Positions 3,587-6,472 of a stretch of DNA of 64,000 bases are shown one piece after another. The DNA is from Escherichia coli (lineage in GTDB: Bacteria > Pseudomonadota > Gammaproteobacteria > Enterobacterales > Enterobacteriaceae). The stretch is taken from the NCBI RefSeq assembly GCF_016026235.1, contig NZ_CP065613.1. The stretch is one strand, 5' to 3'. The first letter of the stretch is position 1; each line of letters begins with the position of its first letter. The translations under genes were made by a program, and so were the position numbers. The notes beneath the pieces were generated by a model. The model ran no database searches, was not told the origin of the DNA, and saw only the letters and a list, made by a program, of their open reading frames with translations.

Positions 3587-4186
3587 ATGCTCTATATCTT
3601 TGATTTAGGTAATGTGATTGTCGATATCGACTTTAACCGTGTGCTGGGAACCTGGAGCGATTTAACGCGTATTCCGCTGGCTACGCTTAAGAAGAGTTTT
3701 CATATGGGGGAGGCGTTTCATCAGCATGAGCGTGGGGAAATTAGCGACGAAGCGTTCGCAGAGGCGCTGTGTCATGAGATGGCCCTGCCGCTAAGCTATG
3801 AGCAGTTCTCCCACGGTTGGCAGGCGGTATTTGTTGCGCTACGACCGGAAGTGATCGCCATCATGCATAAACTGCGTGAGCAGGGGCATCGCGTGGTTGT
3901 GCTTTCCAATACTAACCGCCTGCATACTACCTTCTGGCCGGAGGAATACCCGGAAATTCGTGATGCTGCTGACCATATCTATCTGTCGCAAGATCTGGGG
4001 ATGCGCAAACCTGAAGCTCGAATTTACCAGCATGTTTTGCAGGCGGAAGGTTTTTCACCCAGCGATACGGTCTTTTTCGACGATAACGCCGATAATATAG
4101 AAGGAGCTAATCAGCTAGGCATTACCAGTATTCTGGTGAAAGATAAAACCACCATCCCGGACTATTTCGCGAAGGTGTTATGCTAA
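3587..4186 (+). CDS. yihX: HAD-superfamily phosphatase (alpha-D-glucose-1-phosphate phosphatase)
   Basis: HAD motif I FDLGNV directly after start; AGGAG RBS upstream of ATG 3587. Confidence 0.85.
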
Positions 4187-5052
4187 AAACCATTCAGGAC
4201 AAAGCCAGGCACCGTACCCGTCCACTATGGGCCTGGCTAAAACTACTCTGGCAACGCATTGATGAGGACAACATGACAACCCTGGCAGGTAACCTTGCCT
4301 ATGTGTCGTTGCTCTCATTAGTGCCGCTGGTTGCCGTTGTTTTTGCGCTTTTCGCCGCTTTTCCCATGTTTTCCGACGTCAGCATTCAGTTGCGTCACTT
4401 TATTTTTGCCAACTTTCTGCCTGCTACTGGCGATGTTATTCAGCGGTATATCGAACAATTTGTTGCCAATTCCAACAAGATGACCGCCGTTGGCGCGTGC
4501 GGGCTGATCGTCACCGCGTTATTGTTGATGTACTCCATCGATAGCGCGTTGAATACCATCTGGCGCAGTAAACGAGCGCGACCAAAAATTTACTCGTTTG
4601 CCGTGTACTGGATGATTTTAACGCTGGGGCCGCTGCTGGCAGGGGCCAGTCTGGCGATCAGTTCCTATTTGCTCTCCCTGCGCTGGGCGAGCGATCTCAA
4701 TACTGTCATCGACAACGTGCTGCGTATTTTTCCGCTGCTGTTGTCGTGGATCTCCTTCTGGTTGCTGTACAGCATTGTTCCAACCATCCGCGTACCTAAC
4801 CGCGACGCGATTGTCGGCGCGTTTGTCGCTGCACTCCTGTTCGAAGCAGGAAAGAAAGGTTTCGCGCTTTATATCACCATGTTCCCGTCATATCAGCTCA
4901 TTTACGGCGTGCTGGCGGTGATCCCCATTCTCTTTGTTTGGGTCTACTGGACATGGTGTATCGTCTTGCTTGGCGCGGAAATTACTGTCACTCTCGGGGA
5001 ATACCGCAAACTAAAACAAGCTGCTGAACAAGAAGAAGACGACGAACCATGA
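4180..5052 (+). CDS. yihY: YihY/BrkB-family inner membrane protein
   Basis: 290-aa multi-TM ORF; overlaps yihX stop (ATGA-type coupling). Confidence 0.85.
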
Positions 5053-5486
5053 TTGCATTAATTCAACGCGTAACCCGTGCCAGCGTCACCGTGGAGGGAG
5101 AAGTGACGGGCGAAATTGGCGCGGGACTTTTGGTGTTATTGGGTGTCGAAAAGGATGACGACGAACAGAAAGCAAACCGTCTGTGCGAGCGTGTGCTCGG
5201 CTACCGCATCTTTAGCGATGCCGAAGGCAAGATGAATCTCAACGTGCAACAGGCGGGCGGCAGTGTGCTGGTGGTTTCCCAGTTTACCCTCGCCGCAGAT
5301 ACCGAACGGGGGATGCGCCCAAGTTTCTCCAAAGGCGCATCACCGGATCGCGCAGAGGCGTTATATGACTATTTCGTCGAACGCTGCCGTCAGCAAGAGA
5401 TGAACACGCAAACAGGACGCTTCGCTGCGGATATGCAGGTATCGCTGGTCAATGATGGCCCCGTGACATTCTGGTTGCAGGTATGA
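5049..5486 (+). CDS. dtd: D-aminoacyl-tRNA deacylase
   Basis: 145-aa [11 protein letters not shown]...; 4-nt overlap with both neighbours. Confidence 0.9.
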
Positions 5487-6472
5487 GCCAGCTTCCAGGG
5501 TTGTCACGGGAAACAAGAGAGAGTATCGCTATGTATCACCTTCGGGTTCCACAAACAGAAGAAGAATTAGAGCGTTACTATCAGTTTCGCTGGGAAATGT
5601 TGCGTAAGCCCCTGCATCAACCAAAAGGTTCGGAACGCGACGCGTGGGATGCGATGGCGCATCACCAGATGGTCGTCGACGAGCAGGGTAATCTGGTGGC
5701 GGTAGGCCGACTGTATATTAATGCCGACAATGAAGCGTCCATTCGCTTTATGGCCGTTCATCCCGACGTGCAGGACAAAGGGTTAGGCACGCTGATGGCG
5801 ATGACCCTGGAGTCGGTGGCGCGTCAGGAAGGCGTTAAGCGCGTGACCTGTAGCGCCCGTGAAGACGCGGTGGAGTTTTTCGCCAAGCTGGGGTTTGTTA
5901 ATCAGGGAGAAATCACCACGCCAACCACCACGCCGATTCGCCATTTTTTGATGATTAAGCCCGTCGCCACTCTGGATGATATTTTGCATCGCGGCGACTG
6001 GTGCGCGCAGCTGCAACAGGCGTGGTACGAACATATCCCGCTTAGTGAAAAAATGGGCGTGCGTATTCAACAATATACCGGGCAAAAATTTATCACCACC
6101 ATGCCAGAAACCGGCAATCAGAATCCGCACCATACGCTGTTTGCCGGGAGTTTATTCTCACTGGCGACGCTCACCGGTTGGGGGCTTATCTGGCTGATGC
6201 TGCGTGAACGCCACCTCGGCGGAACGATTATTCTGGCGGATGCGCATATCCGCTACAGCAAACCGATTAGCGGTAAACCCCATGCGGTAGCCGACCTTGG
6301 TGCCTTAAGCGGCGATCTCGACCGTCTGGCGCGCGGACGAAAAGCACGGGTGCAGATGCAGGTCGAAATCTTTGGCGACGAGACGCCGGGTGCAGTGTTT
6401 GAAGGCACGTATATCGTTCTGCCCGCGAAGCCATTTGGCCCGTATGAAGAGGGCGGGAACGAAGAAGAGTAG
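5483..6472 (+). CDS. yiiD: GNAT acetyltransferase / thioesterase-like two-domain protein (FabY)
   Basis: 329-aa ORF; last gene of overlapping yihX-yihY-dtd-yiiD run. Confidence 0.85.

Follow-up and report, generated by a model that had tools for sequence, protein, structure and literature searches.

The yihX-yihY-dtd-yiiD operon of Escherichia coli: two conserved gene overlaps, a most likely downstream start for yiiD and synonymous constraint at the 3' end of yihY

Results

The Operon and Its Genes

The genes yihX, yihY, dtd and yiiD (fabY/madA) of Escherichia coli belong to an already known operon, the catalogued yihX-yihY-dtd-fabY(yiiD) unit, in which the first two junctions are conserved overlaps that plausibly couple translation and the third is most likely a spacer. 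The only new detail is that synonymous sites in the final ~105 nt of yihY are strongly constrained. The finding is otherwise ordinary and has little weight as a discovery, because the operon is catalogued, its two overlaps are of the commonest bacterial kind, the third overlap stems from an outdated yiiD start, and the presence of unrelated functions in one operon is normal.

The window is a stretch of 64,000 nucleotides of an E. coli chromosome, in which the four genes occupy positions 3587-6472, all on one strand. This region was matched in 5,425 of 5,426 complete E. coli genomes. The gene identities and coordinates given by the original prediction were confirmed by profile matches and by the reading of the open reading frames (Table 1). 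The frame containing yiiD is open over 5483-6472. The 313-aa YiiD combines an N-terminal GNAT domain (PF00583, residues 15-122) with a C-terminal YiiD_C malonyl-ACP decarboxylase hot-dog domain (PF09500, residues 158-297), the architecture of the FabY/MadA family (TIGR02447), whose function as malonyl-ACP decarboxylase is taken from PMC8666670. A literature search on the function of YihY returned nothing useful, and an Rfam search over 3300-7000 (E<=1) gave zero matches.

Table 1. Positions of the genes, junctions and signals of the operon in the window.
Feature	Position	Strand	Description	Basis
Promoter-like element 5' of yihX	3528-3556	+	-35 TAGCCA (3528-3533), 17-nt spacer, -10 TACAGT (3551-3556)	inferred from sequence
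yihX Shine-Dalgarno	3575-3581	+	AAGGAGG, strong; 5 nt 5' of ATG	sequence
yihX	3587-4186	+	HAD-family alpha-D-glucose-1-phosphate phosphatase, 199 aa	NCBIfam equivalog NF006991, E 3e-122; Pfam HAD; RefSeq annotation
yihX stop/yihY start overlap	4180-4186	+	ATGcTAA, 7 nt	read from sequence
yihY	4180-5052	+	BrkB-family membrane protein	NCBIfam NF002457, E 2e-143; TIGR00765; Pfam PF03631
Strong synonymous-site conservation block	4945-5049	+	last ~35 yihY codons (~105 nt), directly 5' of dtd start	
yihY stop/dtd start overlap	5049-5052	+	ATGA, 4 nt	read from sequence
dtd	5049-5486	+	D-aminoacyl-tRNA deacylase, 145 aa	NCBIfam TIGR00256, E 9e-77; Pfam PF02580
Legacy K-12 yiiD start	5483-5486	+	ATGA within last dtd codons GTA TGA; most likely not main start	
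dtd-yiiD spacer	5487-5530	+	44 nt; conserved purine-rich ribosome-binding motif AAGAGAGAG (5515-5523)	
yiiD = fabY = madA	5531-6472	+	313 aa from ATG 5531	Pfam PF00583 + PF09500; TIGR02447
GC-rich hairpin	6479-6502	+	10-bp stem, 4-nt loop, 7 nt past yiiD stop, no U tract	
Rho-dependent termination region, peak	6597	+	125 nt past yiiD stop, AT-rich DNA; = K-12 4078563	

Two Conserved Overlaps

The 7-nt overlap of yihX with yihY and the 4-nt overlap of yihY with dtd, both reported in the original prediction, stand under every annotation examined (K-12 RefSeq, PGAP). Conservation among relatives, which had been proposed as a check, was found for both. The distance between yihX and yihY was -7 in 22 species, -4 in 5, -1 in 5 and -22 in 1, and other families have a spacer of 3-174 nt. 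The -4 overlap of yihY and dtd was retained in 46 of the 66 loci where these genes adjoin, including those of Vibrionaceae, Pasteurellaceae and Orbaceae, and the ATGA junction is kept across four or five gammaproteobacterial orders. It persists next to a C-terminal tail of YihY that is poorly conserved and varies across species in length and sequence. The N-terminus of Dtd is always Met-Ile (ATGAT...), which makes the ATGA intrinsic to dtd.

At both junctions, the strength of the Shine-Dalgarno sequence (SD) of the downstream gene goes up across species where the overlap is lost. The SD at the yihY start of this locus has a duplex energy with the 16S 3' end of -3.9 kcal/mol; across species the median was -1.3 kcal/mol with overlap (n=32) vs -6.1 with a gap >10 nt (n=16; p=3.6e-7, a statistic that ignores phylogeny). 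For dtd, the value here is -1.9 kcal/mol and the medians were -4.3 with overlap vs -6.1 with gap (p=0.0018, likewise ignoring phylogeny). The SD of yihX itself reaches -11.6 kcal/mol, the 61-species median being -8.7. A hairpin upstream of yihX (3540-3579) that could sequester this SD is strong in E. coli (z -3.15) but was not retained as a claim, because its covariation in 24 species was no better than that of slid controls.

The distances of -7 and -4 nt both fall inside the range of about -8 to +6 nt expected for termination-reinitiation, in which 707 of 2,987 co-directional E. coli gene pairs are found, -4 (ATGA) being the commonest distance (PMC10666635); statistically, such overlaps are nothing out of the ordinary. 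Overlaps of -4 and -1 couple translation in E. coli and a spacing of ~20 nt almost abolishes termination-reinitiation (Huber et al., PMC6728339, PMC10666635). Overlap geometry, SD loss and conservation thus suggest coupling of yihX to yihY and of yihY to dtd, which is plausible because the downstream starts have almost no SD. The coupling of all four genes proposed by the original prediction is tenable in this part, and finds no support for dtd and yiiD. RNA structure as a coupling device was not significant at any of the three junctions (z -0.4, +1.1 and +0.4). The lack of an obvious functional link between the genes, which the original prediction pointed out, is not remarkable, since 69.6% of the E. 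coli gene pairs with such close spacing do not encode subunits of a complex (PMC10666635); the publications consulted gave no pointer to physical interaction or a common pathway among the four products.

The Start of yiiD

The yiiD start differs between annotations, being the ATG that overlaps dtd in K-12 NC_000913.3 (329 aa) and ATG 5531 in RefSeq PGAP (313 aa). We compared this start in 80 species. Cedecea, Enterobacter sp. Ag1 and most species outside Enterobacteriaceae either lack the ATG at 5483 or have it out of frame; dtd ends in TGA, TAA or TAG depending on the species, and spacer lengths of 37, 40, 42 or 45 nt occur, which shift the frame of this ATG. The MYHLR start of YiiD is kept in all Enterobacterales loci, with the ribosome-binding motif 7-10 nt upstream of the ATG in nearly all of them, the spacer itself ranging from 15 to 150 nt. 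Over the three putative codon positions, diversity in the spacer (0.20/0.26/0.30) displayed no coding periodicity, in contrast to dtd (0.05/0.02/0.35) and yiiD (0.06/0.04/0.37). The SD for ATG 5531 is -5.1 kcal/mol, and in the long form the GNAT domain starts near residue 19. Tetracycline ribosome profiling (TetRP) in three replicates gave 7.2/0/0 at the legacy start vs 30.1/22.0/6.1 at the ATG at +48, reported there as a "new site" (PMC4909307).

Species comparison, the non-coding-like extension, PGAP and TetRP thus favour ATG 5531, 48 nt past the legacy ATG, as most likely the main yiiD start. The small signal at the legacy start in one TetRP replicate may reflect a minor 329-aa isoform. With yiiD starting at 5531, the dtd/yiiD overlap is replaced by the spacer: the ATGA overlap that the original prediction had placed here is an annotation artefact of the old K-12 start, and coupling through it is not supported either, the +44 nt distance lying outside the range of about -8 to +6 nt and beyond the ~20 nt at which reinitiation is almost lost. 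The K-12 reference record would accordingly carry a yiiD/fabY start 16 codons too long, which gives a spurious overlap and a wrong residue numbering for FabY/MadA.

Synonymous Constraint at the 3' End of yihY

Synonymous diversity over 4945-5049 was 0.21/0.21/0.06 vs a gene mean of 0.44, and this block is the lowest 30-codon window of the operon (permutation p<1/5000). The constraint is limited to core Enterobacteriaceae. An overlapping open reading frame was rejected as its cause, alternative frames gaining stop codons in other species. A search of the block for sigma-70-like sites matching at least 9/12 positions on either strand found none, and no local RNA structure in it was significant. 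RNAalifold predicted a helix between 4954-4964 and the dtd start codon region, with zero covariation.

Promoter and Transcript End

The promoter-like element upstream of yihX matches 8/12 consensus positions, which is why the consensus scan missed it. Its block aTAGyCAAA...CTTTCCCGCTACAGT is shared by 24-27 species of Enterobacteriaceae irrespective of the upstream gene, and many of these species have a terminator hairpin immediately before it. The original prediction of a co-directional run was borne out: the genes lie on one strand, the first two junctions have no room for signals, and the distances of -7, -4 and +44 nt are too short for a terminator and a promoter to fit between any of the genes, as in an operon. 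The consensus scan found no promoter-like site on the + strand within 3587-6472, and a single weak terminator-like hairpin is present there (5857-5870), site counts being under the shuffle expectation. The last 30 dtd codons have normal synonymous diversity, which argues against a conserved yiiD promoter embedded in them.

The claim that the operon ends at an AT-rich boundary also held. The GC content falls from 0.53-0.56 to 0.32-0.38 within ~200 nt of the yiiD stop, and a Rho region is located there (Rho score 6.27, p 2.8e-27, class "orphan"; Adams et al. 2021 Supplementary file 2). We mapped its peak from K-12 through the gap-free K-12/window alignment; the position is coarse, as the underlying method works by comparing windows of 800 nt. 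Inside the operon, the same study (Adams et al. 2021) reported two weak signals, a 3' end in yihX (window ~4051, K-12 4076017) and a Rho region in yihY (score 2.06, window ~4434), so that some transcripts end early. The GC-rich hairpin just past yiiD is identical in K-12 and the fold of 6460-6540 is stable (-28.1 kcal/mol, z -2.2); the terminator scan did not call it an intrinsic terminator, and no Term-seq 3' ends are listed for yiiD (Adams et al. 2021).

The downstream AT-rich islet of this strain contains an intact 604-aa open reading frame that is deleted from K-12. Searches of Pfam, NCBIfam and the PDB left it unmatched even at E<=10, and its AlphaFold model is unusable (pLDDT 33).

Discussion

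We consider it probable that the locus is a housekeeping operon of four genes belonging to the core genome of E. coli, with two reinitiation-coupled junctions, a separately initiated yiiD and a Rho-dependent end. Transcription would start at the conserved sigma-70-like promoter ~25-35 nt upstream of yihX and ribosomes would load at the strong yihX SD. Those that terminate at an overlapping stop would most likely restart on the spot, on yihY and then on dtd, as the geometry, SD loss and conservation indicate. The yiiD gene would remain outside this coupling, being translated from ATG 5531, 44 nt past the dtd stop, with its own conserved purine-rich ribosome-binding site. Transcription would then pass the U-less hairpin, and Rho would end it in the AT-rich, untranslated stretch that follows. 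The four products, a sugar-phosphate phosphatase, an uncharacterised BrkB-family membrane protein, a D-aminoacyl-tRNA deacylase and a malonyl-ACP decarboxylase/GNAT protein, have no demonstrated common role, and the cluster has probably grown by accretion around an older yihY-dtd pair. Among the 80 species loci, all four genes adjoin in 48, yihX-dtd-yiiD in 11 and yihY-dtd-yiiD in 5 (Vibrionaceae), while yihY-dtd occurs alone in 8 (Pasteurellaceae, Orbaceae).

Other readings of the junctions can be proposed. That all three are of the ATGA type, handing ribosomes through the four genes and giving a 329-aa YiiD from 5483, appears highly improbable to us. The frame is indeed open from 5483 and so annotated in the K-12 reference record, ~22 close relatives keep the ATGA in frame with Met17, and one TetRP replicate has a small signal there. 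However, this ATG is a by-product of the GTA-TGA end of dtd, lost with a TAA or TAG stop or with any spacer change that is not a multiple of three, and the 14 intervening codons lack coding periodicity; the MYHLR start and the ribosome-binding motif are what Enterobacterales conserve, in line with PGAP and with the main TetRP peak at +48. It is also quite unlikely that the overlaps are neutral by-products without a selected role in expression, produced when a stop drifts and the frame runs on until the TGA in ATGA catches it. The variable tail of YihY and the ATGA that comes with the Met-Ile start of dtd would permit such a process, -4 is the commonest distance genome-wide, and the yihX/yihY junction drifts among -7, -4 and -1. 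Yet SD loss at the downstream start accompanies the overlap at both junctions, the yihY/dtd overlap is retained over several orders despite indels in the tail and lies under extra nucleotide-level constraint, and published reporter tests show coupling at most native E. coli overlaps.

The constrained block at the end of yihY raises a further alternative, to which we give somewhat more credit while still finding it rather unlikely, namely that the unit is an operon only in part: an internal promoter or regulatory site in 4945-5049 would drive or control dtd-yiiD independently, the overlaps reflecting genome compaction more than obligatory coupling. The strongest synonymous constraint of the operon sits exactly there, dtd, a housekeeping gene, would otherwise run short of transcripts because of the Rho region in yihY, yiiD is provided with a separate ribosome-binding site, and several families lose yihY while dtd keeps its neighbours. 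On the other hand, the best lenient sigma-70-like matches in the block reach 7-8/12 and are poorly placed, a separate dtd transcript would be poorly translated since dtd is practically without SD, and the homologous Dickeya unit has no internal start site, although yihY is missing from Dickeya. It is just as possible that the constraint marks an RNA-level coupling element. Our more specific suggestion, which is tentative and in our judgement unlikely, is that the block is a clade-specific regulatory element within coding sequence that controls Dtd synthesis and, with the conserved ATGA junction, marks a yihY-dtd functional partnership. It would take the form of a long-range helix hiding the dtd start unless yihY is translated, or of an unrecognised internal promoter or binding site. 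If true, YihY, an uncharacterised membrane protein of the BrkB family, and the D-aminoacyl-tRNA deacylase would be genuine functional partners. Under the coupled operon that we prefer, the synthesis of Dtd, which is a universal proofreading enzyme, seems in E. coli to depend entirely on translation of the preceding membrane-protein gene; together with the conserved block at that junction, this is a small lead on what sets Dtd levels.

The locus is closest to the K-12 unit yihXY-dtd-fabY of RegulonDB/EcoCyc, with the same genes, order, strand and junction sequences (98.75% identical, no gaps), and yihXY-dtd-yiiD was among the four-gene operons of the RegulonDB units used in PMC4421995. The structure is the same and only the yiiD start differs, with the legacy 329 aa in K-12 vs the supported 313 aa (5531). 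The first two junctions also resemble the coupled pairs of Huber et al. (2019, PMC6728339; 2023, PMC10666635) in their distances of -4 and -7 within -8 to +6 nt, their weak or absent downstream SD and their conserved overlap. In contrast to those pairs, coupling is here read from sequence, the products are not known complex partners (complex partnership being the minority reason, 30%, for such spacing in E. coli) and dtd/yiiD stands at +44. Finally, transcription unit 14 of Dickeya dadantii 3937, yihX-dtd-yiiD, is homologous and was mapped as one unit, with one start site, one terminator after yiiD, no internal sites and both junctions "validated" (Forquet et al. 2022, PMC9239193). It differs from the E. 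coli operon in lacking yihY, a short spacer separating yihX from dtd, and in ending at a classic intrinsic terminator, whereas the end in E. coli is Rho-dependent.

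Gene content and organization of the cluster

The window is chromosomal DNA of E. coli. Open reading frame (ORF) listing combined with family scans identified four co-directional genes (see the table). Among 5,426 complete genomes of the species, 5,425 match their region (3400-6700), the closest being that of strain FDAARGOS_943 (99.9%; O157:H7, 99.0%). The annotation places yihV and csqR, members of the sulfoquinovose cluster, 5' of the run. The arrangement yihX-yihY-dtd-yiiD is an already known operon with ordinary overlaps, and yihXY-dtd-yiiD is listed among the RegulonDB-derived four-gene operons (PMC4421995).

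Coordinates and assignments of the genes, junctions and putative signals
Feature	Position	Strand	Assignment
yihX	3587-4186	+	glucose-1-phosphatase, NF006991, E 3e-122
yihY	4180-5052	+	BrkB/YihY membrane protein, NF002457 and PF03631
dtd	5049-5486	+	D-aminoacyl-tRNA deacylase, TIGR00256
yiiD (fabY, madA)	end 6472	+	GNAT domain PF00583 and YiiD_C PF09500
yihX/yihY junction	4180-4186	+	ATGcTAA, 7 nt, direct sequence reading
yihY/dtd junction	5049-5052	+	ATGA, 4 nt, direct sequence reading
dtd/yiiD legacy junction	5483-5486	+	ATGA, 4 nt, direct sequence reading
Putative yihX promoter	-35 3528-3533; -10 3551-3556	+	conserved block; TAGCCA, 17 nt, TACAGT
GC hairpin	6479-6502	+	10 bp, 3' of the yiiD stop, lacking a U tract

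The arrangement of the four genes was compared across the dtd loci of 80 species. All four were adjacent in 48 loci, yihX-dtd-yiiD was found in 11 (Morganellaceae and most Pectobacteriaceae), yihY-dtd-yiiD in five (Vibrionaceae) and yihY-dtd alone in eight (Pasteurellaceae and Orbaceae), a gene order which suggests that the cluster may have accreted around dtd. The original prediction saw no obvious functional link between the four products, and indeed the literature demonstrates none. YiiD/MadA is a malonyl-ACP decarboxylase supporting FabH-independent fatty-acid initiation, the substrate of its GNAT domain being unknown (PMC8666670; PMC13353551), and YihY was found to be uncharacterised in our literature search. 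The absence of a link is normal, since among closely spaced gene pairs of E. coli 69.6% do not encode partners in a complex (PMC10666635).

The start codon of yiiD

Three start/stop overlaps had been proposed. Those of yihX/yihY and yihY/dtd were recovered in all annotations compared, whereas that of dtd/yiiD was found solely in the K-12 MG1655 record, where fabY begins with the overlapping ATG (329 aa). PGAP places the start 48 nt further on, at window position 5531 (313 aa), in the two other strains compared. All Enterobacterales loci among the 80 carry at the equivalent position the codons ATG TAT CAC CTn CGn (MYHLR), with an aAGAGAGAg motif conserved 7-10 nt 5' of this ATG. The gap between this ATG and the dtd stop spans 15-150 nt, or 320 nt in one Aliivibrio; the stop itself may be TGA, TAA or TAG, and the spacers of Enterobacteriaceae include lengths of 37, 40, 42 and 45 nt, which break the frame. 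Among the 19 species sharing the 44-nt spacer, its diversity by putative codon position was 0.20/0.26/0.30, against 0.05/0.02/0.35 in the flanking dtd and 0.06/0.04/0.37 in yiiD; in the absence of a coding-type pattern, the yiiD "extension" thus evolves as non-coding DNA. Tetracycline-inhibited ribosome profiling (TetRP) reported the ATG at +48 as a "new site" of yiiD (ECK3881; Table S2, Fig. S5), with signals of 30.1/22.0/6.1 vs 7.2/0/0 at the annotated start (PMC4909307).

Conservation of MYHLR, spacer variation, non-coding evolution and TetRP together favour 5531 over the ATG of the overlap. With these four lines, and with the GNAT domain of MadA beginning at residue 19 in long-form numbering (PMC8666670), the dtd/yiiD "overlap" is best read as an annotation artefact; the legacy ATG is nothing more than the GTA and TGA of dtd. 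A minor long YiiD isoform may exist alongside the 5531 form. In the K-12 reference (NC_000913.3, b3888), fabY still has 16 extra N-terminal codons (329 aa), while TetRP backs 313 aa.

Overlap conservation and translational coupling

The two real overlaps are conserved but not unusual: 707 of 2,987 co-directional E. coli pairs lie at -8 to +6 nt (negative values denoting overlap), -4 being the commonest distance (PMC10666635). The yihY/dtd overlap is -4 in 46 of the 66 loci with both genes adjacent, including Vibrionaceae, Pasteurellaceae and Orbaceae, and it is kept despite wide variation in the length and sequence of the YihY C-terminal tail. That of yihX/yihY is -7 in 22 species, -4 in five and -1 in five, with gaps of 11-174 nt in Yersiniaceae, Hafniaceae and Budviciaceae.

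Where genes overlap, the downstream start tends to lack a Shine-Dalgarno (SD) sequence. In the window, duplexes formed with the 3' end of 16S rRNA had energies (kcal/mol) of -11.6 for yihX, -3.9 for yihY, -1.9 for dtd and -5.1 for yiiD from 5531. Across species, kinship being ignored, the median for yihY was -1.3 when overlapping vs -6.1 at gaps above 10 nt (p 3.6e-7), and for dtd -4.3 vs -6.1 with a gap (p 0.0018). A folding test found no RNA structure at the junctions. Overlaps of this kind couple translation in published reporter work on E. coli. From overlap geometry, SD loss, conservation, unstructured junctions and this literature, we infer that yihX to yihY and yihY to dtd would be coupled by termination-reinitiation, with yiiD probably initiating independently at 5531. 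The coupling originally proposed is thus retained for the first two junctions and dropped for dtd/yiiD, where 5531 lies beyond coupling distance; coupling is nearly gone at a spacing of about 20 nt (PMC10666635).

Synonymous constraint at the yihY 3' end

Directly 5' of the dtd start, at 4945-5049 (+), synonymous sites are more strongly constrained than anywhere else in the operon. Measured in degenerate codons with conserved amino acids, synonymous diversity averaged 0.44 in yihY and was 0.21, 0.21 and 0.06 over codons 256-290, the lowest 30-codon window of the operon (permutation p<1/5000, amino-acid class corrected). The invariant block, in which Leu and Ile are encoded by non-preferred codons, is limited to core Enterobacteriaceae; these codons are free to vary in Cedecea, Erwiniaceae, Yersiniaceae and others. 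This constraint may enforce coupling or mark an internal regulatory site. An overlapping ORF was rejected by alternative-frame comparison, and neither a recognisable sigma-70 promoter nor significant local structure was found in the segment. RNAalifold paired 4954-4964 with the region around the start codon of dtd in 22/22 sequences, with zero covariation. The constraint is the chief caveat to a single-promoter model.

The AT-rich islet and a downstream insertion

The AT-rich islet downstream of yiiD (about 6500-10100) contains an intact 604-aa ORF (6883-8697, +). Its SD is strong (GAAGGAGG), and its product includes CKSAKDRT, a motif of the CX5R type. Pfam, NCBIfam and PDB searches gave no match to it, and its AlphaFold model was unusable (pLDDT 33). 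Homologues are confined to Escherichia/Shigella (eight clusters, at least 73% identity, all "hypothetical"), and among 5,426 E. coli genomes, 1,061 carry at least 80% of the ORF. K-12 has lost it by deletion (window 6948-8993 absent), whereas it is split in O157:H7 and IS1-interrupted in FDAARGOS_943. Between yiiF and fdhE lies a 1.4-kb insertion relative to K-12 (10118-11549), the counterpart of an IS3-family transposase annotated at the same site in FDAARGOS_943.

Transcription of the operon

An aTAGyCAAA-N-CTTTCCCGCTACAGT block 5' of yihX is conserved in 24-27 Enterobacteriaceae whichever gene precedes, often right after the terminator of that gene, and its TAGCCA-17-TACAGT elements probably constitute the yihX promoter. 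CCGCTACAGT is invariant in 24 species, exceeding the need of a -10 hexamer alone. The putative -10 is surrounded by GCTACAGTTAA (3549-3559, +), which we take to resemble the sigma-S extended -10 consensus KCTAYRCTTAA. In a predicted 15-bp hairpin (3540-3579, +; E. coli z -3.15), the yihX SD is paired with the -10 region and a CCUUUC stretch; it would form solely in transcripts reading through from csqR, a gene that lacks a terminator here. Its inner stem relies on substitutions (TTGTGG for CCACGG) that, among the species compared, occur in the E. coli sequence alone, and covariation across 24 species did not exceed that of slid controls.

A consensus scan of the window found no + strand promoter-like sites inside the four genes and one weak terminator-like hairpin, sites being fewer than in shuffles. 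K-12 coordinates transferred by K-12/window alignment place a weak Term-seq 3' end within yihX (~4051), a weak Rho region within yihY (score 2.06, ~4434) and a strong one 125 nt past the yiiD stop (score 6.27, p 2.8e-27, ~6597; Adams et al., 2021). GC content drops there from ~0.55 to ~0.32, in agreement with the predicted operon end at the AT-rich boundary, and Rho-dependent termination in untranslated AT-rich DNA is the most likely mechanism. An RpoS holoenzyme genomic-SELEX peak between yiiD and yiiE, listed under yiiE (PMC5493296), maps near this region (K-12 ~4076572 in older coordinates, ~111 nt past the yiiD stop, window ~6580).

In Dickeya dadantii, experimental mapping defined "yihX, dtd, yiiD" as a unit with one start site and a terminator after yiiD, in which both junctions were validated and internal start or stop sites were absent (PMC9239193); it differs from the window in that Dickeya lacks yihY.
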